From IMG/VR virus record IMGVR_UViG_3300045125_000156: a stretch of 64,000 nt of DNA. One strand, written 5' to 3'. This document shows positions 12,901 to 63,509 of the stretch, piece after piece. This DNA is from a virus. The notes beneath the pieces are model-generated. The model was not told where the DNA came from, made no database searches, and worked only from the letters and a program-made list of their open reading frames with translations. The stretch's first letter is position 1, and each line of letters opens with the position of its first letter. Both the position numbers and the translations under genes were made by a program.

Positions 12901-14840
12901 TTCAGTGGGCCAAGGGGCTTTTGAAAGAGCACGGCATCAAAGACAAAGAGCACGTCTTTGACCCTGTGACCAAACGGACGATCGTCGGACCTGACGGCAA
13001 GGGCGTGCTCGTCGGGCGGCAGTTCATCTACAAGCTCTTCAAGAGTACGGACACAAACTTCTCCGGCCACGGCGTCGGCCCGTACGACGTAAACGAACAG
13101 CCCCTGAAGACTGGCGGGGACGAGAGCGCCAAGGGCATCGGCAAGATGGAGTTCGACGCCATCGTGGCCCACAACGCCCGTAACTTTCTGCAGGAGGCCG
13201 CGTCAATCAAAAGCCAGAAGAACGATGAGTTCTGGCGTGCGATCCAGCTCCGGGATGCCGCTGCCGACCCCAAAGCCTTCGTTCGCCTTCAACAAGTTCA
13301 CCGCCATGCTTGAAGGCGCGGGGATCAAAGTCGACAAGCGGGGGTCGAAGTTCAAGCTCTTGCCGCTAACCGACAAAGACATCACACAGCGCAGCAAAGG
13401 CGCGATCACCGAAAAGGAAACGCTGATCGCCAAGAACCTGAAGCCGATTAAGGACGGCCTCTTTGACCCGCTGAAGACAGGCGGGCCTCAAGGCACGCTG
13501 TACTCTCACATCGACCTCCATGAGCCGATCCCGAACCCGGTATTCACCGAGCCGGTGCGGCGCCTTCTCGGGCTGTCCACAAAAGACTTCGAGCAGCGGC
13601 TACACGACCATGGCGGCGCGTGGTTTCACAAAGAGCTTCAAAAGATCGACGTTGACACGAAACTCAACGAGCTCACCAAGGCGATGAACAAAGCGTCGGG
13701 CCCTGAGCTCGACAACCTCGTCAAGCAGGTGAAGTACCTCCGCGCCCTGAAGAGCGAAAACCTGAAGCCCCACGAGGCTTACATCCTGTCCAAGGTGCCG
13801 GTGATTCCGCCGGTCTTTCGCCCGGTGCTGCCCGAAATGCGCGACCCGTCCAAGCTGATGGTTGCGGACGCCAACAAGCTTTACGGGCACCTTCTCGACA
13901 CGAACAATACGCTCAAGACCACTGCCCTTGAGAGCGATCGCGGCAAGCACCGCGCCCTTGTCTTTAAGTCTGTCGGGGCGGTCTTCGGCATGAATGACCC
14001 CGAGGACGAGAAGCTGCAGAAGCAGGAAGTGAAAGGCTTCCTACAGAATATTGCCGGCGTGAGCACCCCGAAGGGCGGCTTCTTTCAGCGCAAGCTCATG
14101 CGCCGAACGCAAGACGTATCAGGACGTGGAACGGCCGTGCCGGACGGAAACCTCGGCATGGATGAAGTGGGCATTCCGGAGCAGATGCTCTGGCAGATGC
14201 TCGACAAACTCATCGTGGCGCGCCTAGTCCGGCAGGGGTACTCAGCCCTACAGGCGCGCGACCTTGTCGACAAAAAAGCGCCCGTCGCCCGCGAAGCCAT
14301 GCTCGCCGAAAGTCGTGAGCGCCCCGTACTCATCAACCGTGCGCCGACGCTTCACCGCTGGTCGGTTGTGGCCGCGTATCCAAAGCCGGTGCAGGGCAAG
14401 ACGAGATCCGCGTCAACCCCTTCGTCGAGAAGGGCATGAACCTCGACTACGACGGCGACACCCTTCAGGTGCACGCGCCCGTTCAACCGGGGGCCGTCGA
14501 AGACGCAAAGAAGATGACGCTCAGCCAGATGCTCCTGGCGGACCAACAGCGTAACAAGCTCATGGCCTTCCCACAGCACGAGGCCATCATCGGCTTTACG
14601 CTGGCGTCAAAGGCCACACCTACGGGACCGGCGCACCGATTCAAGACGCGCGACGAAGCCATGGCCGCGTGGCGTTCCGGCAAACTCAAGCTCACGGATG
14701 GCATCATCATCGAGCACGAAAAGAAAGCGGGAGCCGACGATTTTAGCGAGCCTTTAGACGGCACGCCGATGACGTCTGACGACGCGCTATGCTATTACCC
14801 AGCGGAGAGTGTGACGGGCTATGAACCGCAAGCTAGCTGA
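9922..14840 (+). CDS. rpoB-rpoC: Multi-subunit RNA polymerase: beta fused to the N-terminal half of beta' (several indels)
   Basis: Beta motifs IPYMT..QIRRKPGVY, SLGEGG..THFGALDPIRTPES, NRAIMGSKMGTQALPL, LALGKN, GDKLAGRYGNKGVV, VSRINPAQ and GIGKMEF. These run within one ORF (13225-14439) into beta' motifs GLFD..SHIDL, VPVIPPVFRP, QDVSGRG and LINRAPTLHR; the catalytic NLDYDGD follows in ORF 14436-14840. Confidence 0.92.
11618..12060 (+). other. Inorganic-pyrophosphatase-like domain inserted in RNAP beta
   Basis: DYGHLPGYTGPDGDSLDFFVG and a downstream TDTKF resemble family I PPase NYG.IP.T...DGDPLD...D.K; the flanks are collinear with RpoB. Confidence 0.7.
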
Positions 14841-15432
14841 CATGTTGAGCGGGAGCCTGACTTCGACGTCGATCAAGCGCCCAGGCGAGCCAATGATTCA
14901 CGCCGTGAAAACGGAAGGCCCGCTCGGTAACCTGCTGAAGTCGATGGTCCCTGGGCCCTCGATGCACGCGATGCTCCGCGACATGGTGCCGTCGTCGATG
15001 AGCGGCGATGATTGCGGCTGCGACAACGTAGAAATCTTGAAGAAGCTGTCGTCCAAGAAGTACCAGCTGATCCTCGCGTACATTCATTACGGAGATCAAC
15101 TACGGGCGCTCTACCGGGACCGGCATCTACGAGCACTTTCAGGGCACCTGGAAGAAGAGCGCTCCCAGCTCTATCAGATCAACAAGAAGGTCACCGCCCT
15201 GGGGCATGACGCACCTTGTTGTCCGGGCGAAGTGCCGCCGGTGCCGCTCAACGACGCCAAGGCGATTTTTCGTGTCGCCCTGAAGATCGAAGAAGAATCG
15301 GTGCAACTCTGGTCCGATCTTTTCCGTCAAACCGACGACGACGTCGCCCTCAACGGCATGGCCCAGACGTATGCCCAGGAGTGCCAGGGGCACGCAGACG
15401 ATCTAAAGCGCTATCTGCGGAGCTGTGAATGA
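14821..15432 (+). CDS. Ferritin-like (bacterioferritin/Dps-like) four-helix-bundle protein
   Basis: Helical pattern AYIHYG..., HLEEERSQ...KVTALG, IEEE...W..LF, AQECQGHADDL with the E/ExxH spacing of ferritin-like folds. Confidence 0.65.
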   Translation: MNRKLADMLSGSLTSTSIKRPGEPMIHAVKTEGPLGNLLKSMVPGPSMHAMLRDMVPSSMSGDDCGCDNVEILKKLSSKKYQLILAYIHYGDQLRALYRDRHLRALSGHLEEERSQLYQINKKVTALGHDAPCCPGEVPPVPLNDAKAIFRVALKIEEESVQLWSDLFRQTDDDVALNGMAQTYAQECQGHADDLKRYLRSCE

Positions 15433-15525
15433 GTCACGTTAGCGGCCACGAGACACCTCAAGTAAAACGAGAGCGCGGGTTCTACCGGGACCCCGATCCG
15501 CGTTTCAAAGACTTCAAGGGGAAGT

Positions 15526-15726
15526 TTGAGGACGCATCTCGGAGCAATGGCGAACGGCAGGTCAAAGAGGGCGGCGATTCGACACGTGCTTGCCAAGTAC
15601 GCGCTACTCGACGAGGTCGGGAACCCCATCGACGGCCTCACCGAAATTATCCGGGGCGACGACTTCGGTTATACTAAGCGCCGCGCTGGACGGCCGGCAC
15701 GGATGAGTGATGAAAAACCTGTCTGA
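15526..15726 (+). CDS. Small hypothetical protein with K-x-A motifs
   Basis: 66-aa ORF containing SKRAA and LAKYA. Confidence 0.4.
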   Translation: MRTHLGAMANGRSKRAAIRHVLAKYALLDEVGNPIDGLTEIIRGDDFGYTKRRAGRPARMSDEKPV

Positions 15727-15813
15727 GGGCCGCCATCCGGACTCGGTGCAGGCTGGACGGCGGATCAACTAGGCTGGAACCAGGGCGTGTCGTACGGCGG
15801 CGTATGACCGTGT

Positions 15814-15819
15814 TACACT
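15814..15819 (+). promoter_or_regulatory. Putative -10 element (TACACT) 6 nt upstream of the beta'-C start; example of a leaderless-type promoter
   Basis: No SD sequence; similar TAnnnT elements lie 5-9 nt before eight other starts. Confidence 0.45.
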
Positions 15820-15825
15820 AGCGCC

Positions 15826-17635
15826 ATGCCTACGCCCGTTTCAGTTGGTCACTTCCTGATCAACGACGTCTTGCCCGAGACCCACAAAATCACCGGGCCG
15901 GTCACGAACAAAAACGTGCACGATCACGTCGTCGGTCTGGCCAAAGATAACCCCGCCGAGTACGTGAAAGTCATCACGGCGCTTAAGCGGCGAGGCGACG
16001 AAATTGCCACACTTGAAGGTGTGAGCGTCGGCCTTGACGACATCGCACCCGATTACAAAGCACGCGACGCGATATTGAAACCTGCGATTGCGAAGATTGA
16101 AAAAGCCAAGACCGAGATCGAGCGGGAAAAGCTCGTCATCGAGGCGCAAAACGCGCTACTCGATTATACAAAAAGCACCCCGGCTCGATGACGCATATGG
16201 CATCTTTCCGGAGCGCGCGGAAACCCCGCACAGCTCATGAAGATCGTCGCGACGCCGCTGGCGGCGGTGCACCGAAGCACGGTATCGAGCGGATACCCAT
16301 CAAGCGGAGCTACGCCGAAGGGCTGACCGCCGCCGAGTACTGGGCGACCGTGCCTGAGGTCCGCGCCAATAACGTCGCCACCGTGGTGTCGGTCTCCGAG
16401 CCTGGTGAAATGGCCAAAGTCCTCGTCAACAACATGATCGGGACGACGGTCACGCGGCCGGATTGCGGAACAAAAACGGCGTGCACATGCGCCTCGACGA
16501 CGGCCACATTCTGGACCGGTACGCACAAGACAGCCGGGGCGTTGCACGGAATACGCTTGTAACGCCCCGGCTCGTACAGGAGCTTAAAAGCAAAAACATC
16601 CAAGAGCTCCTCGTGCGCTCACCGATGACGTGCGCCGCTTCGCATGGCGTCTCGCCAGCATTGCCAAGGGCACAGCGAAAAGGGGCAGCTTCACGGGATT
16701 GGCGCTCCGGTGGGCGTGCGCGCCGCACTAGGCTCTGGCAGAGCCTTTGACACAGATGGCGCTCTCATCAAAGCACGCCGTACTGACGATCAAAGAGCGA
16801 AAGCTTGAGCCGACAGGGCTTAAAGGCGTGCGGCAATACCTTGAAGTCCCCAAGGCTTTCAAGTTCGAAGCAGTGCTTGCCCCGCACGCGGGCGTCGTCA
16901 CTAAAATAGAAAAGGCTCCGCAAGGCGGGCACTACATCGTCGTCGGAAGCGAAAAGCTATACGCGCGCCCGGAGCTAACGGTGACGATTGAAATGGGCGC
17001 TCGCGTGGAGCACGGTGACGCGCTCACAGACGGCGTTCCAAACCCGCAAAAGGTTGTGGCCGCAAAGGGTCTTGGGGCCGGCCGAAATTACTTCGTCAAC
17101 GCCGTCCATCGCGTGTATCAGGGCGACGGCATCAACCTTGACAAGCGGCACCTTTGAGCTATTGGCCAAGAGCGAAATGAACCACGTTCGATTTTTGGAA
17201 ACGGACGATCATCATCCGGAGTTTCTAAAGGGTGACGTCGTAAACTACAACGCGTTCCGAGACGCGTATATGAAGGATGCTAAGCGCGTCCCGCTCGACC
17301 AGGCCATAGGCAGTCTTTTGGGGCAAGAAGTGCTGCACCATACTGTCGGCACGCCTATTACTCCCGGGCTTGCGCAAGAGTTGAAATCAAAGCGGTGTTC
17401 GTGAGGTGATGGTGAACAAGCGCCTGCCTCAAGTAGAATTTGTAATGAAGCCCTTCGCCATGAACCCCCTGCTAGAAAGCGACTGGATGGCGCGTTTGGC
17501 GCACCGCTATCTCAAAGGGTCGCTACAGCAGGCTGCGCAATTTGGCGAGACCTCCGACATCCACGGCACCCATCCCATTCCGGCCTACGCTTACGGTGCT
17601 GAACTTCGGAACGGCCCATCGGGACAATACTGATG
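15826..17635 (+). CDS. rpoC: RNA polymerase beta' C-terminal half, frameshifted
   Basis: GVSVGLDDI, (G)ARGNPAQL (frameshifted), IPIKRSYAEGL, PDCGT, VRSPMTC and trigger-loop region LAEPLTQMALSSKH, collinear with the RpoC C-terminal half. Confidence 0.85.
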
Positions 17636-18177
17636 CCTCAAGATCTTCACGCCGTGAAACTAGCCGCCGAACGCCGATATTGGCGTCATACGGGCTGCAC
17701 AAGCTCGCGAACGCCCCACCTGGAATTTTTAGGCGCGCGGCTAACCGCCTATTTCGATATCGCCAGGGAGCCCTCAACGAAAGCACCGCCCGAGGCATCG
17801 TGGGGAGTGTTGGGGACATGGCCCGCGACATGATCTTTGGAAGCCCCCTGTCGCTTAAAGACCAGCTATTAAAGCACCGCGCCGAAACTGGCGGCTGGGG
17901 GCAAGCAATTGCCCGGCACTTTGGGGAATTTTATGTTCCCAGATCAACTGGCTCGACAACCATGGACGTCGTTAGCCGGGGCATGAGCTTAGGTTTTCCG
18001 GCCTACGAGCTCTATGGCGCAGCCACTACCGAAAACCCAGAAGTGCGCCGCCAGCGCATGGCAGGGGCTCTGGCAGGGCTTGCAGCCGCGCCCATAACCG
18101 GCTACTTGGGTTTACCAGGGGCCATTGCTTCAAGCGCTATCTCAAATCTTGCAAGCAAAGCGGTAGCAAGAACCTAA
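17633..18177 (+). CDS. Putative internal virion protein (K-x-A leader, Gly/Ala hydrophobic segment)
   Basis: MPQDLHAVKLAA, HKLANA and AGALAGLAAAPITGYLGLPG; frameshift near 17680. Confidence 0.55.
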
Positions 18178-18222
18178 GCCCAGAAACGCCTCATAATTGA
18201 AATCGACAAGGAGTTCTCCGAA

Positions 18223-20400
18223 ATGAGTCTGTTTAAGCACGCCATGGTTTCTGGGATCAACGACGCCCTCGTAGATAGCGGCGCCGTGATGTGGCCCAAC
18301 GAGCAGGTAGGCTTCGAGGTCTGCTCGAAAATTGCCGCCGATCTCGACGGCCCGGACATGCTTCCTGACGGGGGCCTCGCGCCCGACAGCGCGCTCCTGA
18401 TTGGCGGGCGCCTCAAGGAGGCTTCGGACTACCTCCTTCAAAATGGCTACGTCCCAACCCAGGAGTCGCAGTACATCGCCAAGGTCGCGTCGGAGATGAA
18501 CTTCGCGGATCGCGCGGCGGGCGTAGCGTCGGCCTGCATGGACAAGGCCGCTGCGGACGCGTCGCTGACGAACGTGGGCCCTAACACCGCCGAGTCGGCG
18601 GCGCAGACCGACCAGCACGCGGCGCTCGATCTGCGCAACCGGGCGATCAACGAGTACCTGGCGGGCGTAGGCCACACCCGTTTCCCCACGGGTGGCATTG
18701 TCGGCCAGCAGATGGTCGCGCCGGGGCGCATGATGAGCCCAGCGTTTTCGAACAGTTTGACGTCGCTGGATAAGCAGGCGGATGCCAGGCCGCTGCCTCC
18801 CCGACCGTCGCGGGGCAACCACTTTGATACGATACCCGACTCGGCGGCTGCCCGTCTGGAACGGGCCGATGGAATCGCAACTCCACGGGGCAACGCTAAA
18901 CAACTCCACGCTCGTCGACCCCTTTCGGATGGCGGCTGTTGAGACGACCTTAGGGGGCGTTGGCCCCGCAGCCGGCGATCCTCGCTCGCTCGCCCGACTA
19001 GACGCTATCCAGAAGACCTTAGGGGCGTTGGCCCCGCAGCTCTCGCTGAAGCTGCTGCCTCCCCGGCCGTTGCGGAGGCCGCCAAGAATCAGCCCGGCGC
19101 CATCATGCGCTACCCTCCAAAGCGCAAAGACAAACCCTTCGCCGCAGGCGGCGCAAAAGAGGTCGCCAAGGCTCTCGCCAAGCACCCCGGTACGCACGCC
19201 GCCCTTCTCGCGGGTCTCGGCGCCGGCGCCTACCACATGATGGGCGATGATGGCCGCGAAGTCACCGCGAGCGAAGACCTCTCGGGCGCGGACATGGGCG
19301 CCGACTCCGACGAGATGATCCGTCAGATCATGGCCGGTGAGGGCGTCGGGCAGCACGCGTCGCCAGAGCTCGTGGCGGCACTCAACGCCGAGATGCAGAA
19401 GGAGTCGGCGGATCAGGGCTACATCGAGTGGCTCGCTGAGAAGATCGCTAAAGAGGAGGAGAAGAAGAAGCTTATCGAGCGGCTCAAGGACGTTGCCGGT
19501 AAGGGCAAGGAAAAGGCTCTTGCGTACGCGCGCAGCGCCAAGGAGAACCCGTTCGCGAAGGCCACTCGCGACAAGGGCGTTATGGAAGTCGCCAAGGCTG
19601 TGGGCAAGCACCCCGGAACGCACCTCCTAGGCGCCGCCGGCCTCGCGTACGGCGGGAAGAAGCTGTACGACAAGTACAAAGAGGACAAGGAGGAAGGGGC
19701 GAAAGAGGCAGCCTACCTCGAATTCCTCGCTGAGAAATACGCCGCAGAAGGCGATAAGAATCTCAGCGATAAGGCCAAGGAGATGGCCGGCAAGGTCAAG
19801 GAAAAGGCTCTTGCGTACGCGCGCAGCGCCAAGGAGAACCCGTTCGCGAAGGCCACTCGCGACAAGGGCGTTATGGAAGTCGCCAAGGCTGTGGGCAAGC
19901 ACCCCGGAACTCACCTCGTAGGCGCCGCAGGCCTCGCGTACGGCGGGAAGAAGCTGTACGACAAGTACAAGGAGGACAAGGAAGACGAGAAGTCTGCCGC
20001 ACTCCTTGAGTACCTCAAGGCCGCTGCGGACGGCTCGCTCACCGACGTCGGGGAGAACACCCCGGAGTCCGCCGCGCATTCGGACTCGGTTGCGGCCCTT
20101 GACCTCAAGAACCGCGCAGTCAACGAGTACCTCATGGGCGTCGGCAAGACCCGCATGCCGAACAAGGGCCAGGTCTACGCCGTTGAGCCCGCTGACCAGG
20201 ATGACCCGGTGCATGCGCACAACCTACCGACCGATGAGACCAAGAGCGCCGAGCTTGCGTACGTGAACAACTTCCGCAAGATCGCCGCCGATCTCGGCCC
20301 TACCTCCCCGCGACCATGAGCCGTGACGAGAAGGTGGCGCACCTTCAGACCATGCTCGGCCTCCCCCGGCTGAGCGCGTAGAGTACGTACAGGCCCTTCA
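18223..20400 (+). CDS. Large repetitive putative virion core protein or polyprotein, frameshifted
   Basis: AAGGAG SD; many K-x-A motifs; duplicated domain KAAAD.SLT.VG.NT.ESAA....AALDL.NRA.NEYL.GVG.TR.P near 18540 and 20020. Confidence 0.7.
19506..19980 (+). repeat. Near-identical direct repeat of about 185 nt, period 291 nt (97 codons)
   Basis: Copies start at 19506 and 19797 (caaggaaaaggctcttgcgtacgcgcgcagcgccaaggagaacccg...), in frame. Confidence 0.9.
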
Positions 20401-20472
20401 CGCTGGCTGATCGCAGTAACAACTAGCGTCTCTTCGAACGCCTGCGGCTATACTAGCCGCAGGCGTTCGCCT

Positions 20473-22983
20473 TTGAGGAGCAGCACAATGACGATGGAGT
20501 TCCCCCTTTCTCAGTCCCCGCGAACCCAGGGCTTTCAAATGCCACAAGCGCCCGAGGACGAGAAAGACCTATTTACCCAGGGCTTCTCCGACCTGGCGTA
20601 TCGTGCTTTTCAGAAGACGCAGCCAGAACTGGTTAGTAACATTCTGACCTTCCGCGTGCTCGACGTTGATGCCGAGGCGGGCCAAGGCATCGGCACGTTC
20701 ATCGTCCAAAACGAGCAAGACATCGTCTTCGTGCCTTGCGTAGTGTCGGAAAACTCGGTCAAACCTCTTGACCTGTTTTATTCACGAACCTTCGACAAAT
20801 TTTACCCCTTCACGACTGCTTGGCTGCGTGAATCGTCGAAGGCCAACATCAACCAGTTAGGCTCTGGTGTACGGGCGCCTAAGACGATGCCGACCGACGT
20901 CGACATTCGTAACCTCGTCGTGCCGCCTACAACCGGGCGCTATAGCTACGCGTCAACGATCGAAGAAGACGCATGGTTGCCTTTCACGGTAGCCGTGCGC
21001 AAAGAAAAGAATGCGGAGCTCGGCGCGGAGCCGCAGTTCTTAAACCTCCTCGACCGCAGTTCGGACGGCTTCAAAACAGCGTTCGCCCAGGTACTATACC
21101 GTCGCCCGAAACTAGCGAAGCTCTTCGCTGAGTTCTACGGCGCGGAGAAAGTCGCGGCCGTAATTTCGCGGCGTGAAAAAACCGCGCAGGCGCATCGAAA
21201 AGAAGTGCCGATGACAAAGAGCGTAGCGATCATGACCAACGCTACGCCCGTCACGCAGATCAAGCGCGAGCTGAAGCCGGGTGAAGCCGCACGTGCTTTC
21301 CAGCAGATCCGGCTTCATGGCTTTTACGTAAAAGACCCGCGCCCCGCCACGGACAGCCTGGTGTCTTTTGCCGAGACAGACTTACAGCTATCTCAGCCCA
21401 CCGTGCCCGGCGTCTACAACGTGTACACGGCGCGCGGTGAAATTGAGCGCTGCATCATTGTCCCCAAGCCGCTATCGATTCATCGCCGCCGCAGCGGCGA
21501 AGCCCGCTTTCCGACCGGGTACTACCACGACGACCGAAACCGTGAGAGCGGTCTGAAGCTTCGGCGCGGTTTCATGGTCCTGTTCCCGGACGGGCGCTAC
21601 GCCATGATGGACGACATGGTGGCCGAGCCCATCACCGACGTCAGCCACAAAGAGGTATCGGACTTCCTGGAGTCCTTTACGAAGGAGTCTCCGTCCAATC
21701 GTGAGCGCGGCGTCCTCATCTCGGCCGCCGACATGGACATTCGGGCATTCGAGCCCGTCGAAGCGGACGAGGTGCTCAACACGAAAGACAAGATCGTCTT
21801 TCGCGGAGCTTTCCACCACACAGTGTCAATCAGCAAAGTAATGACCGGCAACGGTGTTTACTACCCGCAAGATTCTGACACGATCGTTCTTGCCAATTCC
21901 TTCCGCTGGTTCCCGCGTGGGCGCCAACTCAGCAACTCTGAAATTCTGTCATCTCCTGGGTCCGTGTTTCGCCTGATTGAGGCGCGGCTTGTAAAGCAAG
22001 GGGCGCAGCGCGTTTCTGTAAAAAGGCAGGCCTGAACTTCATCGTAGATGGCGACGGCGTACCGCTAGCCCCGCTCAAAGCCGTGAAAAAATCGCCAACC
22101 ACTACAACCTCCGGGATCAAAGAAGCTTCCGAGATTGTAACCGTAGCGGGCGCTGGACTCCCCCTCTCGCTATGGCGCATAAAGACGGCGCAGGGCAGTC
22201 GCTGGATCCGAACGCGCCTCCGCCGCCAGACCCGAACATGGCGCCTCCGGGCCCGCCGCCTGGGCCGAGCGGGCTAGACCTTACGCGCAAGAAAAGCTAC
22301 AGCAAATTCAGTCGCAATTGCGGCGCTGCAGCAATGCAGCAAATCCTGACGGAAGTACAGCAACGCGCCCAAATGATCGGATCAAGGCGGCGGTGCGATG
22401 GCCGCCCCGGGGGCAGCGGCGTCGATGGCGGCGGGGCCTGGGATGATGGGCGGGCAGCCCGCGATGGCCCCCGCCGACATGGGCGGCGGGCCGCAAGGTC
22501 CGATGCCTCCGCAGGGTGGTCCGCAAGGTCCGATGCCTCCGCAGGGCGGGCCACAAGGTCCGATGCCTCCGCAGGGTGGTCCGGGAATGGAGGCACCTCC
22601 GCCGCCACCTCCTGTAATGCCGGAGGGCCCGACGTCTCCACAAAACCTGGAGCAGCAAATCAACCCCGCGTTCCTCCAGGACGCGGCGTCGCTTCAGGAC
22701 ATGGGCGTATTTGATGCCGCCGCCATCGCCTCTATGTCCAAGCAAAAGAACGTGGAAAGACCTCGTGCAGGTCTACACGCCGAGCCTTGAAAAGGCCATG
22801 GACAACCTTGGGCGCATGCTGCTGCTTTTCTACATGAAAGAAAACGAAATCAAGCAGCAAATTGGGGCGGAAAATTACGAAGAGACTGAGCAGAAAATTC
22901 GAGACGTATTCAAGGGAATCGGCGACGCCGTGGTCGCCCTGAACCAATACTCTGATCAGCTCATGACGCCTTCGATGCGATGA
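20473..22983 (+). CDS. Large putative virion protein with Pro/Gly/Met-rich linker, frameshifted
   Basis: ORFs 20473-22035, 22172-22714, 22398-22790 and 22711-22983 appear to be one gene; EKNAE, EKTAQ and EKVAA motifs. Confidence 0.6.
22490..22585 (+). repeat. 30-nt coding tandem repeat, about 3 copies (GPQGPMPPQG)
   Basis: ggtccgcaaggtccgatgcctccgcagggt-like unit repeated three times. Confidence 0.85.
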
Positions 22984-23080
22984 GTTCAACGCTTCATGCC
23001 CGCGCAACTCCCCGACTTTCGAGCTAAACGCCTAATCCGGGAAGCTCAAACCCAGGACGACACCGTCGCCACGGATAGTC

Positions 23081-23723
23081 TTGAGCGTGATGTTTTCACC
23101 TCGTGAAAACCGGGCGGAGCGGCGTCCGGACGAAGTCCAGATGGCGGCGGACCTGTACTTGGACAACGAGTACCGGCACGTCTTAAACGCCCTGTTGCTT
23201 GCGAACGCCAACGACGAGCAGGTCAGCGCCTCCCTCAATGTCCCTGAGTCTGTTCAGGCGTCTATCGCCATCTGTTTTTTGACTGTAAGACTTTCGCGCA
23301 CAACCTCGCACGAACCCGCTACGTCAAAGAGCTTGCCTGCGAGGAGCAACTCGAGTTCTTATATCAATTAGCCATTGAGCGCGGGCCCAGTGAACTGCTT
23401 GAGCGCTACCGGATTGGCCCTCGGCCAAAAACAGATCCAGAATTTGTACTGTCCGAGAGCCTCGCGGACATGTGGGGTAAGTTCCTCACGCATCGTGGAT
23501 ACAGCGTGACCTCCGACAACGCCCGAGAAGCTTTGAAATGGGGCGAGCGGCAATTTGCACCGCCAAGATTGTCATGGAGACAAACCGTGAGGAGCGGCGC
23601 GGCGTGAACGCTGTCGACGACCTGAGGATCGCCCTGGAAATAAAGAACGAAACAAAATCCATGACAGATCTCGGCATCCAGGCTGACGATCTGGTCGGGA
23701 GTAGCCTAGGATTAGGAGAGCCG
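23081..23723 (+). CDS. Hypothetical protein, frameshifted
   Basis: ORFs 23081-23371 and 23538-23846 have consistent coding character between structural genes. Confidence 0.45.
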
Positions 23724-23725
23724 CC

Positions 23726-24539
23726 ATGCCGCAATGGGACAGCAAAAAGTTTGAGGAGAGTGCGACCAAGATCGCCCGCGAGTTCAACTCCAACGGCGGG
23801 GACCTTCACGCGCTCACAGTCAAAACTGCCAAAGAACAGGGGCTGAACCAGGAGCAGATCCGGCGGCTAGGCCGCGCCGTAAACGTGAAAGCGTTTGAGC
23901 AGAAGTTTGCCAGTCTCAAGGGAGCCAAAGACCGCATCGTTGATTTTGACCCCGTAGACCCGGAGTCAGTAATCGGCACGCTCTTCAACGCTTCAGAAGC
24001 TTCAGAAAAGCCGCGCGGCTGCGATCTACCCGGAGCTGGCGGATCAGATGAAGGCCGAGCGCGGCTGGACGCCAGAGTACGAGAAAACGGCAAGTGTCGA
24101 CGTACTCGGAGAGCTCTTTGGCGCAGTACCCAAAGATCCACCAATTGAGTCGCAAATCAATCACTGGCGCAAAGTGGCAGAAGAGCTCCGCGTCAGCGCG
24201 GGCGCCGAGATGCAATGGGACGCCGCGATGGAGGAGCTCCTGGGGCACTCAAAGCGAATCTACTGGAAGCGCGACGACTTTGAGAAAGACGCCATGGCCC
24301 TCTTTGGGGGCGACGTCCTTGAAATCAACGCCCTTCGCACGTCGAGCAAACTAGAGCCGCTGCCAGCGACCTATGAGACTGCTGAAAAGCTCGCATCGCA
24401 CTTATTCGGCGAAGAGACTGAAGACACACGCCTTGTTAAGAGGGCTGCCGACGCTCGGCAGAACTATATGAAGGCTTCCAAAGCGCTAGAGATCGCCAAA
24501 ACGAAAGTAGCCGCGCTCGTCGCCCAGGTGGTGAAATGA
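23726..24539 (+). CDS. Putative core or scaffold protein, frameshifted
   Basis: GGAG SD; helical LTVKTAKEQGLNQEQIRRLGRAVN; YEKTAS, AEKLAS and VKRAA motifs. Confidence 0.6.
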
Positions 24540-25129
24540 ACCCCGAGATCGCCTTCTTAGCGGAAGAGATGGAGAAAGACGCCGGCGTAGTCCGGGAGGC
24601 GTTTGGCCGGGTTGGAGACGCAGTCGCTGGCGGTAGGAGCCTGCTGCGCGGGGCGCGGCAGGCACACAGCCAACATCAAGCTGGTAGAGCGTTTGAGCGC
24701 ATGTCTAAAAATGTCGCGCAGCACGCCCCCAACGACCCCATAGCCCAGCAAGCGCTTCAAGCCGCACAGCAACACCTTGGCCCGATGGCGCAGAGTCGCG
24801 GCCTTTTTCAGCGGGTGGGCGATGAGCTTCGCAATGGGAGGCAAGCCGCTCGGCGGGCCATCGCGGAAAACCAAATGCAACGCGACCTTCGCGAACTACA
24901 GCGCCACGCCCCGCAAGCACATAGCGCTTACGCTCAACCGTTCCAAGCGGCAGCGCCGCAAGCGCCTCAGGCGGCAGCCCCAGCGGCAGGCGGCAGCCGG
25001 CTATTGCCTATGCTCGCGGGTGGTGCTGCGCTAGGCACTCTGGGCTACGCCGGCTACCGGGGCTACAAGCGGCCCGCGAGCAGGACGCCCGCAGCCAGGA
25101 CCACCTGCGGAACGCCGAACATGACATGA
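24536..25129 (+). CDS. Putative internal virion protein (K-x-A leader, C-terminal glycine-zipper segment)
   Basis: MNPEIAFLAEEMEKDAG ... LAGGAALGTLGYAGYRGY. Confidence 0.65.
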   Translation: MNPEIAFLAEEMEKDAGVVREAFGRVGDAVAGGRSLLRGARQAHSQHQAGRAFERMSKNVAQHAPNDPIAQQALQAAQQHLGPMAQSRGLFQRVGDELRNGRQAARRAIAENQMQRDLRELQRHAPQAHSAYAQPFQAAAPQAPQAAAPAAGGSRLLPMLAGGAALGTLGYAGYRGYKRPASRTPAARTTCGTPNMT

Positions 25130-25575
25130 CGGCGGCACTTCCAAGTATGACCGTAACGGCCAGCTACAACAAACTGGCCCACGCGAAACTTGGGAGGGTT
25201 TGCAGGAAATGCTGCGCGAAGTTTTATAGGCGGCATGGGAACGCCTGTCGGAGAGCGTCTGATTGGCAAGCCTATCGATCTGATTGCCGGAGCGGCTAAG
25301 AGTAAACTTTACGATGAGCCTCGGCAGCGTAAAAACTTCGAAGCCGTAATCAAGGCTGATCCAATGCTCGCGCAGCACCACGGACAAAATCCGCAAATGA
25401 TGCGAGAGGCGTTTGAGACCATTCGTCGGTTCAGCCCTACGCTCGCTCAAGACCCGATGGCGACTCGGAGCCTACTCAAGCACGTTGCAATGTCTTCCGG
25501 CGAAATGGACGCTCGCCGCAATGAAGATGCTGGCTGAAACCGAAAAGATGCGCCAGGAAAGCATGCGGAGTCGGT
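25126..25575 (+). CDS. Putative virion protein
   Basis: NKLAHAKLGG then FETIRRFSPTLAQDPMATRSLL; start overlaps the upstream stop. Confidence 0.55.
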
Positions 25576-25578
25576 GAC

Positions 25579-26875
25579 ATGAAGATCTCTAATGAACTTC
25601 GCGCCACGCTGCGCTACGAAGGCTACGCGAAGCTCGCCTCTCAGGTCATGCGCGATCAGGGCGAGTACGTGGGCGACATCTCAGGTTTGGACACGGCGAT
25701 GAAATCCATGTGCCGTAAAAATTGCGGTTAACCGCCTCCAAATCAAGACACAGTCCTAGAAGGCACTGGCGTCTTGCCGCTACTGCAAGGGCGATAACAT
25801 GAGCCTATACGCCGCCTTTCACGCCGTGAAAAACGGCTCGGTGGACGACAAGGTCGCCTTCTGGCAGCTCTGCAGAACGGCAGCGAGCAGCCCGCGCGGG
25901 CGGCCTCTATGCTCGGAAAGCTGGACAAAGGTCGCCTACGACATCTGGGCGGAAAGCTACGAGCGCGGAGCTTCGCCGAACGGCCGACCGCATGACGCGA
26001 GAGGCGTTTGCCGGGTCGTTTGGCTCGGCCGCCGTAGTCGAAGGCACGCTTACAAAGATGGCCAGGGCCGGCAGCAGTGACGAGCACGAGCTCGCCAAAA
26101 TGCACCGTTGGGTTGCTGAAAGCGCCGTGCAAGACCTGACGCACATGACGAAAAACGCCAACGTCATGGCCACACTGAAAAAGCCCGGGTGATGGGGGCC
26201 GTCATTGGCGCGCTGCCCGTTTCGGAGCCGGCGTCGGGGCGATGCAGAACAAAGACGCCCCGGGAAAAGGCGCCTTGGTCGGCGCAGTGCCGGGGAGCCA
26301 TCGCGGGCTGGGCGATAGGCCGGAGCCACATGCCCGTCGCCGATCCAGTGGCGACAGCGATGTCGAGGCGCATTTTTAGGCAACGTTGGCAGGGCGCTAT
26401 ACGATGCGCCTACTATGAAGGCTAAATCGGACGCTCTCCGAAAAAATCTTCGGGAAGAAAAAGCCGACATATTGCCCGAGTCTTGGCGAAGGCGCGCGAG
26501 CCGCCCTTGAGCGCCGACCGAGCCGGGCGAAGCCGTCGCCGAGGCCCCAGGGCCAGACCCGGAATTAGAGGGTTTGGGTCGTGCGAACAAGGTCGTGGAC
26601 AACATGATCTTCCTGGCCAACCAGGCCAGTTTGCCGCAGCTGGCGCAGCAATGGGCCAGATGCGGGATCAACTGGCGTCGCACTTTGCGGAAGGCCACGC
26701 CTACTTGCCCGCAACCGAGCTCCAGCACCACTTTGCACAGAGCGAGCATGCCCGGCGCTTTTATGAAAAAGTACAAAAAGCAGCGCTTTGGCTCGCCGAC
26801 GACGCTGGTTCCAAGAAGGCTGCCCAACCTCGACTGGTTTTCTTGGCGCGCTCCGCGCATGCGGCTTCAGCTCCA
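25579..26875 (+). CDS. Cluster of 2-3 small K-x-A-bearing proteins; boundaries uncertain because of indels
   Basis: MKISNELR..YAKLAS; MSLYAAFHAVK..DDKVAF..MTKNAN; VQKAAL..SKKAA. Confidence 0.45.
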
Positions 26876-26877
26876 CC

Positions 26878-29320
26878 ATGCGCAAGATCTTTGAGCTCGA
26901 AGACCGGTTTGCGACGGGCGAGCCGACGATTCGACTCGTCATGCTGCCTGACGCAGGCGTGGCGAAGCGCGACACTTTCGAGAAGCGTGCTGATTCTGCG
27001 GCCGACTCCCGGCCTATGAGTACCTGAAGACGGTTGCACCCAAAGATGGTCACTCCATCGTTCTCGTAAACGCCCTTGGAGCCTACGAGGCGTACGATGA
27101 CAACCGAAATGGGGATGCCTTCCTCGACCGCCCGGTGAAGGCTGGCGAAGCCGTTCGCTGCGGCCACAAGTCCTGCCAAGCTGGGGCTTGGGTCGCCGCC
27201 GACGAAGTACTGTCCAAGCACTGACAAGACCTTCGAGAAATTTGGCGGGATCTATAAGCACCACGTCAACAAGGACCCTCAAAATCCTTAGGCAAAGTGC
27301 TCAAAGCCGTCTGGAATCCCAAGATGCAGCGCGTCGAGCTGCTACTTGAGATCGTCAACGACCGCGACCAAGACCTGGCCAAAAAAATTGCGGATGGCGA
27401 GTATCCGGCCGTGTCGATGGGCTGTTTAAGCGCGGGCACCCCAATCACCCTGGCTGACGGGCGGCGCATCGCCGTCGAGAACATCGAAGTTGGGCACCGG
27501 GTCCGAACGCACCTTGGAAACAATCACCGCGTGTTCGAGCTGCACCGCCGAACGTACTCGCTAGCGTAATACACACCATCAAGCCGGAGGCCGCTCCCGC
27601 CCTGGTGGTGACGCACGAACACCCTTTCACGTCGTGAAAAAATAGACGTGAAAAAGCGAGACGCCAAAGGCGCCTGCGTGGAACTCCGAGGTTGCTCCGC
27701 AAGGCGTTTGGAAGCTAGCTGAAGAGCTTGACCCTGAAGAACACTACCTGCTTCAGCCCATCAATCGTGAAGTCGCGACGCCCTGTATGCAACCTGGGCC
27801 TCGCGCGCCTCCTCGGGTACTACTTGGCCGAAGGAAACGTACTGCGCGACAAAAGTGAAAAGCTGTGCGGGGTGGAATTTACGTGCCACGAAAAGATGAA
27901 CTCCTCCTCGAACTGCCCGACCTTTGTAAGGATCTGGGGCTCTCGGAGCCGTACATAATCACCTGAAACAGCGCGGTGGCCCGAAGCGCGCGCGTGTTTG
28001 ACGCCGACCTCGCCGAGAAATTAGCCTTACCTGCAGGCTGCGGAGCCAAAGCAAAGCTCCTTGATGCGTCGGTCATGGCGTGGGCGCCGACGTATCAGCG
28101 CGTTATTTGGGGCGTACGCCAACGGCGACGGGTGCGGGAACAAAGACGGAAGTCTGCAGGTGTCTACGGCATCTGCCGACCTTGCGGCACAGTGGCTCGA
28201 CCTTTTGCCCTGTCTCGACATCCTGGCGTCACACCAGGTCTTAAGCCACAAGCCGAACGCTTTGGTAAAATCGCGACGACGGAGCACGTCGTATTTATCG
28301 GCGCTCAGTGGGGCAACAAGGGCTACGCGACGTATGCGCGAAGGTAAAGCCCCACGAGTTAAAGACCCGAAAAGAGTCCCGCAAGATCTTCGAGACTACG
28401 TCGTAACGCCCATTCGCAGCATAGAGCGCGCGTCGGGAATTATGCCGGTGTATAACTTTGAGGTCGAAGAAGATAACAGCTACGTCGCAGGGGGCGTCGC
28501 CGTTCACAACTGCCACGTCAAATGGGATGTTTGCTCCATCTGCGGCCATCGAGGCCCCACACGCAAGGACTACTGGTGAGCACGCGCGAAACAAGATGCG
28601 GCAGGTTCTCTCTAACGGAGAGAAGGTCTGCGTCCACAACCCAAGCCCCGCTTCTTTGACATCAGCTTCGTTTTCGCCCGGCAGACCCGACGGGGTTCAT
28701 GCTCAAAAAAGTAGCCTCGGCCTACGAGCTCTGGTCAGGGCCGAGCGCGAAGATGGGCGAGGTTGCTGACGAATACGAGCAGAAAATTGCCGACGCTCGA
28801 AAGCTGGGGGACATCCGCAAACGCCTGCTGGGCAAGTCGCTACGGCAAGGCAAGACGACGTAGACAAGTATCGTCCTGTCGCAAAAGCGAACGCTAAAAG
28901 TCGCTGGCCCGCCGAAGACAAAGACATTGCGAGCTGGCCCGCTACCCGCTATCGCAAGTACTGGCAACGTTCTCCGCAAAGAACGCGGCGCTATCGACAA
29001 GCGACGTCGCACGGCTTTTTTGAAGAAAGCCGGCGTGTCCAGCCCAGATTGGCTACTGGACCGCGTCGTCGCCATGCAACCGATTCTGGAGGCCGGACTT
29101 GCCAGGGCGCCGTCGATTGGCGAGAAAACCGCCGCGCTCCCTTGAAATGACGTCAAAGAGCGTAAACGCCTCCCTGTTCGACACGGTTGAGGCGTGGGTT
29201 GAAAAATACGCCGGGCTCTCTGATTTTGGCTCAGGCGATTTTTACGGCAGCACTTCAAACCTGCCGATTCCCGGCGCAGGATATTACGCGGCCGCTGCGC
29301 CCCTCGAACGGACGTTCTGA
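26878..29320 (+). CDS. Prohead (head maturation) serine protease with intein and C-terminal extension, frameshifted
   Basis: NRNGDAF, KHHVNKDPQ..LG (putative His), VSMG|CHVKWDVCSICG (putative Ser plus Cys cluster), FFDISFV; HK97/assemblin-like motif order; located upstream of the capsid genes. Confidence 0.7.
27423..28510 (+). mobile_element. Intein with LAGLIDADG homing endonuclease
   Basis: Begins CLSAGTPITLADG (block A); LARLLGYYLAEG and ALFGAYANGDG (blocks C and E); ends VYNFEVEEDNSYVAGGVAVHN followed by Cys+1. Confidence 0.92.
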
Positions 29321-29905
29321 CGATCACGGACCCTTATAGCGGCCACGTGTATCAGACACACGCGCGGCGCAGCGCAGGACGCCAGAAAATCCGAACTCAA
29401 ACACAAACTCTTCGGCACCGCGCTGCTCTCTACGCTTTACGGTGCGGGTCTCTACCACGGGGCTAAAGCCCTATTTCGGCCTAAGATCCCAACATTGGCG
29501 CTGGCGCCGATTACAGGGCTGGGGCAGGGACCTACGACAAGCTTCGAGAGTTGGGGGTTACTCGAAATCCGTACTACATTACGGATCAAGGAATTCGAGT
29601 GCCGGGCCGGTACAGAATTTGTGAAAGCAGGCGGCGTAAGCGGCCCTACATACCTGGATAAAGTCGCGTTCGACGTCCTTGAGCGCGTACCGTCGGCCCA
29701 GAACCCGCAACACGCCCTTCACTTAAGAATTGCCCGTCATGCCCCCGAGAGCGCAATCGCGTCCTTTCTCCTAGCTGATGGTACAGACGAAGAGAAGGCG
29801 GCTGCACTTTGCGAGGACTTAGAATACAACACTGACGGTGTGGCCCCCGCCCAAATCGACTTGACCGCGTTTGGGGACCGTGTAGGAACTCTCCTGTTGT
29901 CGTAA
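29320..29905 (+). CDS. Hypothetical protein, or the protease C-terminal part
   Basis: Hydrophobic LFGTALLSTLYGAG; FVKAGG and LDKVAF motifs. Confidence 0.45.
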
Positions 29906-29934
29906 AAGCACCCTAACCTAAGGCCGAGGATCAC

Positions 29935-30830
29935 ATGAAGCTCAAGAGTCTCATCGGGAACATTGAAGGCGGCTCGACCAAGACGGCGGCCGTTCAGACG
30001 CGCGGGTCGAACATTATGGCGGCCATTAACGACGCGCTGGAGCAGACCGAGAACGCCAAGACCGCCTCTGCGCACTCTGCGATTGAGGACCTTGAGAAAA
30101 TGGCGGCCGAGGTTGCGTCGTCGCATCGCGGCGGCGAGGTTGAGCACGCGGAGAAGATCGGCGCCGCGATGGCCGATTCCTTCGTGTGGCAGATCGCGGC
30201 CTACGAGGCGGCCTCTGAGAAGATCGCGATGGAGAAGGCGGCGGAGATGAACGTCACCGCCGATGAGCTCCAGCTCGTTCGTACCGCCCGCATGGACCCC
30301 CGTGGGTTCCTGGCGAAGGTAGCCGAGGAGGCGGAGTACCAGGATTACCAGAACGAGAAAGTGGCGGCGGAGATCTGGGAGAACACGACCCAGGAGACCG
30401 TGCGCGCCATCCACAAGACCGCGATGGATCACTACGCGGCCGGCTACGCCACCATGCTTGACGCCCTGCAGAAAGAGGCGGCCGTCAACCCGATGCTTAC
30501 AGGCGGAGCTCTTGGGGTCTTTATGGCGCCGGAACGGTGTGCGGCCTCGGCGGCCTCGGCGGGGGCTGTTCACGGCGCGCTAACTGCAGAAGAAGGCGAG
30601 CGGCTGCAAGCTGCGCTATCCAGCGGGAACGGGCGCGATGTATGGCGGCGGCGCAGGCGCTCTGGGCGCGGGCGGCGGCGCGTACGCAGGCCATCGAGTA
30701 AGCGAAGCAGCGGGGCTCGGGCCGGAATACGCCAATAAAGCTCTAATTGAGGCCGCCAAACACCCAGTCCATAATCTGAGGGCGGCTCTAAGCGGGGCCT
30801 TCGACGGCTATACCGGCGCTTCGGGCGGCT
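29935..30830 (+). CDS. Putative scaffold or core protein, densely K-x-A punctuated
   Basis: GAGG SD; Ala/Glu-rich helical sequence; nine K-x-A motifs; lies between the protease and the capsid gene. Confidence 0.65.
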
Positions 30831-31044
30831 GACCGCACACAAACAGTAATCTCAAATGCGTAACCGCGACGCCCAGCTAATGAGCCTCTTCCTCGAAGTG
30901 CGTAAAACAGCTTTCCAGAAGCTGGCTACGCCGCTCAACGAAGCCGTTCTATCGCCTTTTCAATCAGGCAGCGCAGGGCGTCAAAACCGCGTCTGAAGTT
31001 GCGTCGATTGATAAGGCCCTGTTCCTTCACACTTCGGTGCCCTG

Positions 31045-31830
31045 ATGCCGCGCTTTGTACCGTCCATCAACGAGACCGTAGAGCAGGTGCTGAGCGAAGT
31101 CAGCGGCGGGCTGCAGATAAAAACTGCAGCCCGTCGGCCGACTGCGCCTGCGGTCAATCTCCCGCCTCTCAAAAAGATCGCGGAGGCGCTGCGCCAGGAC
31201 AAAGATCCGGGAGCTGACTTACGACGTTCTTCACGTCGTGAAATTGGCCATGATGGCCGACGCCGTAGGCCCGCTTCCTGCCCCTGAGCTACTCCCGAAA
31301 CCGGGGACAGCTTCAGCAAAGGCCTGCGTAAACTTGCCAATGAGCTCCGCGTTCAAGACCACGAAGCCCATGAGCAGCTGCTCGCAAAGGCGCTCACGCG
31401 TTGAAAGCGAGCCGGGGTCTTATGCTTCTACGCGAACTGGTCAGGAGTGACATGAGCCTAGAGAAAGAGTCGCCTCGCTTCTGAAGCACTGGCGGACCAA
31501 CACGACGCAAATCCCACCGGCCCCGTGATTGCGGAGCCCGAAGAAAATGCCGTCGAAAAGTTTGCTGCGACTTACCGCAACATAACGGGTGAGACTTAGC
31601 GCCTGAACCCGTGACCGCCTCGAAGGCGACGACGTTCTGCGTGAGGCGATCTCGAAAGTCGCGAATCAAAATTCTCGTCGTCCTACTCCTTTGGGTGAAG
31701 CACGCCGACTCGGACAACTCCCGGATGAGTCGCGCGGCAAGACAAAAGAGGCCGCAGAGCGCGAGGCCTACGAAGTTTGCGCAGGGCATCCTCGCAATCG
31801 GTCAACGGTGATCCCTAGTATTACAGGCAG
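31045..31830 (+). CDS. Two small putative head proteins (about 31045-31450 and 31452-31830), frameshifted
   Basis: IKTAAR, VKLAMM and MSLEK(V)AS; start/stop overlap and SD-like AGGAG. Confidence 0.45.
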
Positions 31831-31842
31831 AGGTAGGAAGAA

Positions 31843-32380
31843 ATGAAGCTCTCGCAAAAGTTCAACCTGTCCGGTCGCGACCCGATCAACGGCGCGAAAG
31901 CCGGCATCTACGAGTCGTTCACACCTGTAGAGGTCGCTCAACGCTACTCGACCGGCGTCGGCCCGGGCGTGCCGGACGACAACGGCACCCCGACCCCCGG
32001 CACGATTGAGCCGGGCCACATCGTTTCGATGGCGGCGTCGGGCGCGATCCAGCTCGCCACCGTCCGCCGCTGCTTACACGCGGCGCTCCCGATCATCGAT
32101 GTTCGTCGTGTTTTCGGGCGACGACGACTTCTCGGGTCGCCGCGTCGGGCACGGTCAACGCCATCCACGGCGGGTGCCGTTTCGACACCGAGAAGTTCAA
32201 CACCGCCGTCGACCTACACCCCGGGCGCTCCGCTGTATCGCCTCGAACGCCACCCCGGGCATCCTCACGCCGAAGTCGCTCGGCGACAACCGCCAGATTG
32301 TTGGATTCGTCGGCCCCCGTGGCGTGCTGAACGGTGTCCTTGACGTGTTCATGCCGCAGACAACTGGCTCCGGCAACTGA
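31843..32380 (+). CDS. Capsid decoration or cement-like protein, frameshifted
   Basis: About 175 aa, beta-rich (IEPGHIV, FDTEKF..YTPGAPL, IVGFVG), immediately upstream of the capsid gene. Confidence 0.55.
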
Positions 32381-32414
32381 TTGACTCAAACAGGACACAG
32401 GAGTAAAACGAGTC

Positions 32415-33337
32415 ATGGGTGCATACGCTACAGAGACGCCGCAGGTCAGCGCTCGCTTCCTCAACCAGTCGTTCCTGAACGCCATCGAGGGCGGGCGGAC
32501 GAAGGAAGCCGCTGACGAGGGTACCAACTTCATCCGCGAGATCGTCCGTCAGGCGTCCGCCGTGCGTGAGATCTCCGCCCGTCGGCCTCCAGGACGACGA
32601 GATCGACCGCGACGAGCGGACGGATGAGCCCAAGAAGATCATCGAGAAGGAGCCCCAGTCGGTGGCGACCTTCGTCGAGTTCCAGGGCACGCCGTCGGCG
32701 TACTGGTTCCGTGGTCCGCGTTACGCGGTGTTCTTCGGCAAGATCCTCTCGCCGAAGGCCACGAAGAGCAAGTTCCAGCTCATGACCTACCAGAACGATA
32801 TCCGCAAGATCCTTGCGGATAACTTCGTGAAGGACATGGCGGACCAGGAGGACAAGTACTGGCGCCGTCGGTGCTGGTTCTTGTGAACAAGAACCCGGGC
32901 GCGCAGCGCACCGAACGCGCCCGCGTTCACCTCGGCCGCCTTCAAGCGCGCGTTCCAGTCGCTCCTTGATCGTCGTCGCCCCATCGGCAAGATGCTGATG
33001 ACCAAGTCGCTGTACATGGAGGCGATCGACCTCCCGGCGACCGCGGTCGGTAACGCGATCGCTGAGACGCACTACCGCGAGGGCATCGAGAACGAGGAGA
33101 AGCTCTTCGGCATCCCGGTCAGTGACGACCATGTGAAGTCGGACATCTACGACCCCCGTGAGGTGCTGGGTGTTCTCGCCCCAGAACTTCCTCGGAAACT
33201 TCTTCCTCCTTCAGGACGCCACCCTGTTCATCAAGCAGGAAGCGGACATGATCGAGTTCTTCACCTACGAGGCGCCGGGCATCGGCATCGGTAACCGCCT
33301 CTCGATGCAGCACATCGTCTTCCCCGCCGCGACCTGA
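32415..33337 (+). CDS. Major capsid protein (HK97-like fold), frameshifted
   Basis: About 305 codons; strongly biased C/G-ending codons; GGAG SD; followed by a strong terminator; FIREIVRQAS..REI, KMLMT, LFGIPV and YEAPGIGIGN segments. The call rests on synteny and character. Confidence 0.7.
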
Positions 33338-49998: not shown

Positions 49999-50169
49999 GG
50001 GTCTGCCCGGTGTATCACGCCCGGCTCAGGATTGGGATTCGTCAGGTCGATCTGCGCGTTGTCCTCAAACGCCATGTTGACCCCTGCGCGTCCCGCAGGC
50101 GCTGCATGGCGGGGTCGAGGGGCTTGAAGGGCGTGCGGCCCCGCGCAACGATCCCCAGGTCCTCTCCGC

Positions 50170-50568
50170 TCAGTTTAAATAAACCGTAAGCGTCGAGAAC
50201 AGCGCGGACGGCGTCAGGAGTTCATCGGCCAGTTCCTTTCGGTCTACCAAAAGATAACGAATCATGGCGGCGGCCCGGATAAGAAAGGCTTTGGTCGCGG
50301 CGTAGTCTTTGTTCAGAATTGCCGACTGTGCGTTGCCGACGTCCGCCGACAAACCCATCAAAAGATCATTGAGCGGCGTACGCGCTTCTTCAGATATGAA
50401 GAGAAGATGTAGCGCGTGCATCGTGTGGTCGAACTCACGGCCACGGTCGACCGCCTGCGTCACGTCCATCACGTTGATGTCTCGCGTGCACTCGCACTCC
50501 GGCATGGGCTCCCCCTTGGCGTAACAGGGGATACTCCAGGGGGCTGCCGCAGCGCTCGCAAATTCCAA
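50170..50568 (-). CDS. Hypothetical protein
   Basis: Intact helical ORF with GGGGAG SD before the internal ATG (MPECEC). Confidence 0.5.
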   Translation of the reverse strand: MEFASAAAAPWSIPCYAKGEPMPECECTRDINVMDVTQAVDRGREFDHTMHALHLLFISEEARTPLNDLLMGLSADVGNAQSAILNKDYAATKAFLIRAAAMIRYLLVDRKELADELLTPSALFSTLTVYLN

Positions 50569-50596
50569 ACGTAATGGTGCTCAACGTTTTCCCAAA

Positions 50597-51108: not shown

Positions 51109-51146
51109 AACTGCAGACGCCGTTTTGAGCCGGTATTAGGCGCGTC

Positions 51147-52520: not shown

Positions 52521-52626
52521 TTTAACTCCTTGCTGGTAGGCGCAAGTCCCGTGCCCGTTGCGCGAGCTCTTTCTCATACTCTTTTTGCCAACGCGCTTTC
52601 GCGGTCTTGGACGTGTATTGAGGCCT

Positions 52627-53124: not shown

Positions 53125-53139
53125 ACCCTGAAGGGTAGC

Positions 53140-63480: not shown

Positions 63481-63509
63481 ATACAGGTCCTTGTCCTTAT
63501 CATAGGCGC

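Follow-up and report, generated by a model that had tools for sequence, protein, structure and literature searches.

Head-maturation proteases determine which proteins remain, exit or become activated within the phage head, yet their cut-site codes are known for few model phages. Every gp21-type enzyme described for a phage in the literature cleaves behind Glu (PMC5694885, PMC10052503). The locus described here, in a large uncultured phage represented by IMG/VR record IMGVR_UViG_3300045125_000156, raises the question of whether a phage head can also be matured by a code of another kind. Its head-assembly block, which starts where the RNA polymerase beta' gene stops and closes with the major capsid gene, encodes predicted proteins that contain the tripeptide Lys-x-Ala (K-x-A) far more often than their composition predicts. 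We analysed a stretch of 64,000 nucleotides, hereafter called the window, together with related loci. A preliminary description of the window had proposed that a protease encoded at 26878 processes many proteins at K-x-A, and the excess of the motif, its conservation and distribution, the predicted fold of the protease and a control with T4, which are evidence from sequence and from a structural model, support that proposal indirectly. We put at roughly 0.7 the probability that the head-maturation protease encoded by the phage itself recognises K-x-A and cleaves there.

K-x-A in the head-assembly block

Reading frames in the window were tiled by homology to an intact reference relative (G001, IMG/VR contig UViG_3300042305_002533), which is collinear with the window and ~85% identical to it, and the counts were compared with composition-matched shuffles made for each piece. 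The scored part of the head block (18223-31800) contains 67 copies of K-x-A where 26.5 would be expected (z score 8.8), and the remainder of the window contains 67 where 60.1 would be expected (z 0.9). Other spacings in the head block give z scores of -0.9 for K-A, 2.4 for K-xx-A and -0.6 for K-xxx-A, and Ala stands at +2 after 32% of the head-block lysines, at an Ala frequency of 13.6%. The preliminary description had suggested judging the motif against composition-matched controls, and in the head block the enrichment over such controls is present. The occurrences that it had listed at 39044, 50597-53646 and 61970-64000, on the other hand, are at chance level only, and 56971 has no counterpart in the reference relative and was left unscored.

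A blind scan of 400 patterns of the form a-x-b was made in the head block of the reference relative, where K-x-A came out on top with 98 occurrences against 41.8 expected (z 10), followed by PxP (z 7.1); K-x-A reaches z 0.5 in other parts of that genome, and K-A, K-xx-A and K-xxx-A are not enriched. Fifty-eight related loci were retrieved and 32 of them, with GC contents of 46-70% and marker protein identities of 26-100%, had enough head-block sequence to score. K-x-A ranked first in 31 of these and second in the remaining one, R-x-A was never enriched and K-x-G was depleted. Even in a locus with 2.6% Lys and 10.5% Arg, K-x-A was found 39 times against 15.8 expected. The phage is related, by gene order and distant homology, to Salmonella phage Arash, which has a contractile tail, a genome of 181 kb and, as its most abundant virion proteins, RNA polymerase subunits; in Arash gp218-gp225 K-x-A is again the top pattern (44 against 19.8, z 6.1).

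The identical scan of T4 gp67, gp68, gp21 and gp22 placed IxE (z 4.3) and LxE (z 3.8) in the top two positions, and returned no pattern from T4 non-head proteins. Since this is the experimentally known gp21 code, the method is able to find protease codes. The T4 core proteins also have a mild excess of K-x-A (12 against 7.0, z 2.0).

The signal acts at the protein level. In the reference relative AAR-NNN-GCN, the codon form of the motif, is found 98 times when read in the coding frame and 8-18 times in the remaining frames and on the opposite strand. The choice among synonymous codons at K-x-A sites equals the background; a motif at the DNA level is ruled out by this confinement to the coding frame with synonymous codons left free. 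Among orthologs less than 60% identical, the conservation of Lys in K-x-A is 0.415 as against 0.189 for other lysines (p 9e-7), and that of Ala is 0.457 as against 0.212 for other alanines (p 2e-9). In the scaffold alignment, sites of the KTAS type reappear at varying positions within linkers that are themselves unalignable, and they therefore behave as a short linear motif. The extended logo reads [L/F/M]-[E/V/T]-K-[T/V/I]-A-[S/A]-[E/D], with Pro and Gly depleted around the sites from -2 to +4. Lys and Ala are the constant positions; Glu at position -1 is a modest preference, present in 19% of sites, and at +3, directly after the Ala, Ser is enriched 2.8-fold and Ala 1.9-fold. The first K-x-A of a protein lies at a median residue of 29, compared with 73 in shuffles. 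The excess is carried by homologs of the 720- and 272-residue proteins of the reference relative, a glycine-zipper protein, the candidate protease, a 181-residue scaffold-like protein and three small proteins encoded after the scaffold-like gene.

A candidate protease and the capsid leader

The gene at 26878..29905 (+ strand) is predicted, from an AlphaFold2 (AF2) fold, sequence motifs and Pfam intein matches, to encode a prohead protease that continues into a scaffold-like C-terminal region and is split by an intein. Its landmarks are NRNGD at 27102-27116, the His motif YKHH at 27253-27264 and the catalytic-Ser motif AVSMG/C at 27408-27425. The intein (~27423-28510), with LAGLIDADG blocks, starts at AVSMG/C and ends at VHN/C (28502-28513), so that it is inserted three residues beyond the conserved Ser. 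An intein occupies the same site in ~8 of ~36 distinct orthologs (L009, L020, L023, L038, L041, L044, L059 and L066), and the matches of some database representatives of 1,300-1,400 amino acids fall into three separate segments, which points to a pair of inserts in those proteins.

Intein-free orthologs have 580-680 amino acids, with a conserved N-terminal domain of ~250 residues followed by a variable, largely helical tail. The domain carries invariant NRNGD, H127 and S178 (alignment A2, 26 orthologs) and the motif RPAD. After the catalytic Ser comes a Cys/His insert, D-V-C-x-x-C...Y-C-x-H (C188, C191, C202, H204; A2 186-204; window ~28514-28580), which from its sequence looks like a zinc ribbon. 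Invariant D186, D230 and D239 are candidates for the third catalytic residue, the alignment with gp21 ending at the Ser.

An AF2 model of an intein-free ortholog had a predicted local distance difference test (pLDDT) score of 75.7. When it was compared with 48,161 PDB representatives by VIA-align, the best match was T4 gp21 (5jbl_A; Z 9.4, root-mean-square deviation 3.4, 139/165 residues), and the next match had Z 6.4. Foldseek listed gp21 and then herpesvirus proteases, all with weak E-values; a search of PDB sequences with the protease gave no match. In the hhalign register NRN aligns with NRN, H126/H127 with gp21 H85 and S178 with S140. We accept the product of 26878-29905 as a very divergent serine protease of the gp21/assemblin fold (MEROPS S77, S80 and S21), fused to a scaffold-like tail.

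The three K-x-A sites that had been read in this protein, EKRAD, KKVAS and EKTAA, are present at 26980-26994, 28705-28719 and 29122-29136, and the second of them marks the end of the protease domain. In alignment A2 the corresponding K247-V-A249 is invariant immediately behind the domain, and a site of the K-V-A type follows the domain in 113 of 120 distant representatives having RPAD. Across 150 representative protease proteins K-x-A occurs 1294 times against 584 expected (z 32), and it lies within residues 21-60 in 144 of the 150. The family comprises 3,316 clusters at 50% identity (E<=1e-10).

The major capsid protein (32415..33337, + strand; 306 amino acids in the reference relative) is 38% identical to the Arash major capsid protein gp226 (E 6e-67), and its identity rests on this homology because its AF2 model (pLDDT 47.5) was too poor for use. 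Its N-terminal leader holds one K-x-A, in GGRTKEAA (32499-32513), where TKEAA had been noticed before. The site lies at residue 27-37 (~30) and its Lys is conserved in 17 of 17 orthologs, while in the mature part, pooled over 17 related sequences, K-x-A is about threefold rarer than expected (8 against 22.4). Scaffold and capsid proteins have the leader IEGG(R/S)TK(T/E)AA in common. Scaffold and core proteins dense in sites, a capsid leader with one site and a mature capsid protein with few are the distribution that a protease code predicts.

The motif as a cleavage code

If K-x-A is the code of this enzyme, the protease would be incorporated into the prohead alongside core and scaffold proteins that are rich in K-x-A. 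Once the shell closes, it would cut itself loose at the invariant K-V-A that follows its catalytic domain. It would cleave scaffold and core proteins to short peptides able to exit the head, remove the leader of ~30 residues from the capsid protein and trim the N-terminal leaders of packaged proteins. Predicted cuts at K-x-A would split the 181-residue scaffold-like protein of the reference relative into pieces of 5-41 residues. The cut probably falls after Ala, since the motifs of T4, phiKZ and herpesviruses share a P3-x-P1 register.

Among known systems the best structural match, T4 gp21, has NRN, His and Ser in register and is encoded beside the scaffold and capsid genes of a head module. 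Its known L/I-x-E code acts on gp22, gp67/gp68, the gp23/gp24 propeptides and the targeting sequences of internal proteins, and here too an a-x-b motif of three residues is over-represented in the core and scaffold proteins as well as in leaders. The protein differs from gp21 in having Lys-x-Ala instead of hydrophobic-x-Glu as its putative code, no significant profile membership, a zinc-ribbon-like insert that gp21 lacks, and a scaffold-like tail of ~400 residues, plus the intein in the window. The phiKZ gp175 and SPN3US gp245 proteases (MEROPS S80; S/A/G-x-E and A-x-E) likewise belong to phages with a virion multisubunit RNA polymerase and many motif-bearing head proteins. Both enzymes are reported to process their own C-termini (PMC5694885), a behaviour to which the invariant K-V-A after the protease domain of the present family would correspond. 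Their cuts follow Glu, however, whereas the constant residues of the present motif are Lys and Ala.

Herpesvirus assemblin (MEROPS S21) cleaves its release and maturation sites, (V/L/I)-x-A, between this Ala and a following Ser. The assemblin fold is among the top structural matches, the arrangement of a protease with a scaffold-like C-terminal part and a site directly behind the domain is the same, and the Ala followed by Ser or Ala in the present motif recalls the herpesvirus sites. P3, on the other hand, would be Lys rather than a hydrophobic residue, the two enzymes have no detectable sequence similarity, and the register of the cut compared here is a deduced one. The closest cultured homolog of the protease is Arash gp222, described as a 'structural protein' (28% identity, E 2e-40). 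Arash gp218-gp226 have the same gene order and the same leading pattern, the Arash versions being LEKVAN after the protease domain and LVKEAG in the leader of the capsid protein, although Arash is distant, infects an enterobacterial host and was published without a protease annotation. A literature search, limited in reach, found no description of a Lys-x-Ala prohead-protease code, and Lys-x-Ala would appear to be a new specificity of a known type of system.

Several observations weigh against a cleavage code or against the assignment of its enzyme. As the known gp21-type phage enzymes cut after Glu, a Lys/Ala code would be a departure from all of them. The hhalign probability for the alignment with gp21 is just 2.9%, 26 members of the family matched no Pfam protease family at E<=1, and the match to PHROG 18299, 'head maturation protease', is weak (E 0.0025). 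In the window the protease open reading frame (ORF) itself has only a marginal excess of K-x-A (10 against 5.6, p 0.054), and three head-block proteins, all encoded on the + strand, go without one: a 236-residue protein (22996..23705), the partly alignable homolog of a 525-residue protein of the reference relative (24536..25571), and the 179-residue protein adjoining the capsid gene (31843..32380), which has no K-x-A in the window at all. Helical structure could account for some of the conservation at the sites. Cleavage, the bond that is cut and the sites that are used are deduced throughout, no cleavage product having been observed in the phage or its relatives; the Arash virion proteomics paper gives coverage per protein only and did not analyse processing, and its supplement is an annotation table.

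Three alternatives to cleavage by the phage protease were weighed. The excess might be a by-product of helical proteins rich in Ala, Lys and Glu, of internal repeats or of chance, as the proteins concerned are Ala-rich (14-19%), the 720-residue homolog contains internal repeats and even the T4 core proteins have a mild K-x-A excess. But the shuffles preserve the composition of each protein and leave K-A, K-xx-A and K-xxx-A unenriched, R-x-A is not enriched and K-x-G is depleted, K-x-A is first or second of 400 patterns in 32 of 32 loci, and the sites are conserved and in excess in non-repetitive proteins too; we consider such a by-product highly improbable. A true motif could still be read by an enzyme other than the phage protease, either a host protease or a lysine-modifying enzyme. 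Lys is strictly required and Arg is not accepted, as might be expected of such an enzyme, and none of the evidence ties the motif to the gp21-like protein in a physical sense. The motif nevertheless accompanies the protease family across GC contents of 46-70% and into an enterobacterial phage, the protease proteins are among the richest in it, and the block contains no conserved candidate modifying enzyme, all of which makes another reader improbable.

There is also the prospect that K-x-A is never cut and serves in docking or assembly, for instance as a capsid-targeting tag through which core, scaffold and cargo proteins bind one another, the portal or the inner face of the capsid. The bias of the sites to N-termini and the leader common to scaffold and capsid proteins would suit such a role, and the T4 capsid-targeting sequence does combine targeting with cleavage (PMC5694885). 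Up to 15-19 copies per protein at distances of 5-40 residues would be unusual for a docking tag, however; the rarity of K-x-A in the mature capsid protein, its invariant occurrence where the protease domain ends and the exclusion of Pro and Gly fit a substrate better, and the T4 control shows that a protease code yields a statistical signal of this kind. We therefore regard docking without cleavage as unlikely, and prefer cleavage by the phage protease. A wider form of that reading, to which we incline slightly, is that Lys-x-Ala is the code of a very large branch of the gp21/assemblin fold (~3,300 clusters without a Pfam family), that these enzymes cut after Ala, and that the leader tag also loads, and then releases, head cargo.

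If cleavage at K-x-A is confirmed, the gp21/assemblin fold would gain a new specificity, one that, with Ala before the cut, would bridge those of phage and herpesvirus proteases. The boundaries of mature proteins, the scaffold and core proteins and the packaged cargo could then be predicted from sequence for a large group of uncultured phages of ~170-195 kb with a virion RNA polymerase. Salmonella phage Arash, a relative that is in culture, would allow a direct test of the code.

Other head-block genes and the quality of the window

Searched with blastn, the head block had no match among GenBank phages, and its proteins had hardly any matches among Pfam, PHROGs and PDB sequences. All genes described below lie on the + strand unless stated otherwise. 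The first, at 18223..20410, encodes a K-x-A-rich head protein which was identified by tblastn as the homolog of the 720-residue protein of the reference relative, its frame being broken in the window. It has 13 K-x-A against 4.8 expected in the window (p<0.002) and 19 against 8.2 in the reference relative, and its site lysines are conserved at 0.42, compared with 0.07 for its other lysines. A conserved module, SLT(D/N)VG.NT.ESAA...ALDL.NRA.NEYL.GVG.TR, occurs in it in two copies (18543-18702 and 20017-20145).

The next gene (20473..22983) encodes a large virion protein, of 834 amino acids in relatives, homologous to the Arash 'structural protein' gp218. It contains an invariant K-T-A (WRIKTA, 22173-22190) where the folded part meets a linker rich in Pro, Gly and Gln, and the residues concerned, K571 and A573, are unchanged in 27 sequences down to 21% identity. 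A 272-residue, core or scaffold-like protein (23726..24539) is K-x-A-rich, with 10 against 3.1 expected in the window (p<0.002) and 15 against 3.7 in the reference relative. The recurrence of the motif that had been reported for these genes is accordingly borne out at 18223 and 23726 and, as the invariant K-T-A, in the 20473 gene; at 24536 it amounts to no excess. The glycine-zipper protein (25799..26860; 581 amino acids in the reference relative) was recognised by its Pfam Gly-zipper match and has 6 K-x-A against 2.2 expected (p=0.012).

Beyond the protease, the scaffold-like gene (29935..30471; 181 amino acids in the reference relative) shows the motif as first described: the first 180 residues of ORF 29935-30738 contain 12 lysines, of which 9 belong to K-x-A (KTAA, KTAS, KMAA, KIAM, KAAE, KVAE, KVAA, KTAM and KEAA), the others being K2, K4 and K74. 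Its leader ends in STKTAA (29974-29991). The gene is followed by ~380 bp (30471-30856) that have no counterpart in the reference relative; the ORF extends into this stretch and ends in an Arg-rich tail, apparently out of frame. Three small core proteins (30856..31783; 62, 136 and 140 amino acids in the reference relative) are also K-x-A-rich, with 3 against 0.6, 4 against 1.1 and 4 against 0.6 in the window. Their counterparts in the reference relative have 3/4, 5/9 and 5/6 of their lysines in the motif.

The window, from a contig of 149 kb with a GC content of 60% in the window, has unusually fragmented ORFs; that at 20473, for example, has 520 amino acids where homologs have ~840. The genes of the reference relative are unbroken and its coding density is 96%. 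Compared with it, the window contains ~155 frame switches over 64 genes, almost every gene shifting frame 1-12 times, and ~315 non-triplet indels in 44.6 kb. These are mainly single-base changes, with insertions as frequent as deletions and just a portion of them in homopolymers, and the breaks are probably errors of an unpolished, error-rich assembly. As frames are broken throughout the window, ORF-based readings have to be guided by the relative. One among these ~155 breaks is the frameshift that the preliminary description mentioned in ORF 29935, and it is therefore not special. An alternative genetic code, with readthrough of TGA or TAG, was also considered for the fragmented ORFs and was ruled out by the indels of 1-2 nucleotides relative to the intact genome.

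Outside the head block, the RNA polymerase genes (9922-17630) have no K-x-A excess (12 against 12.3 expected), although their Arash homologs are the most abundant proteins of the virion; their counterparts in the reference relative are a beta-beta' fusion of 1992 amino acids and a beta' C-terminal part of 601 amino acids. A ParB-like protein (3487-4545, - strand) has a marginal excess (9 against 4.9, p 0.044; 8 against 5.6 in the reference relative) which is probably due to chance. Far from the head block, at 50117-50848 of the reference contig (L005:117-848), a protein of 243 amino acids contains 8 K-x-A against 2.5 expected (p 0.0015) and is possibly packaged.

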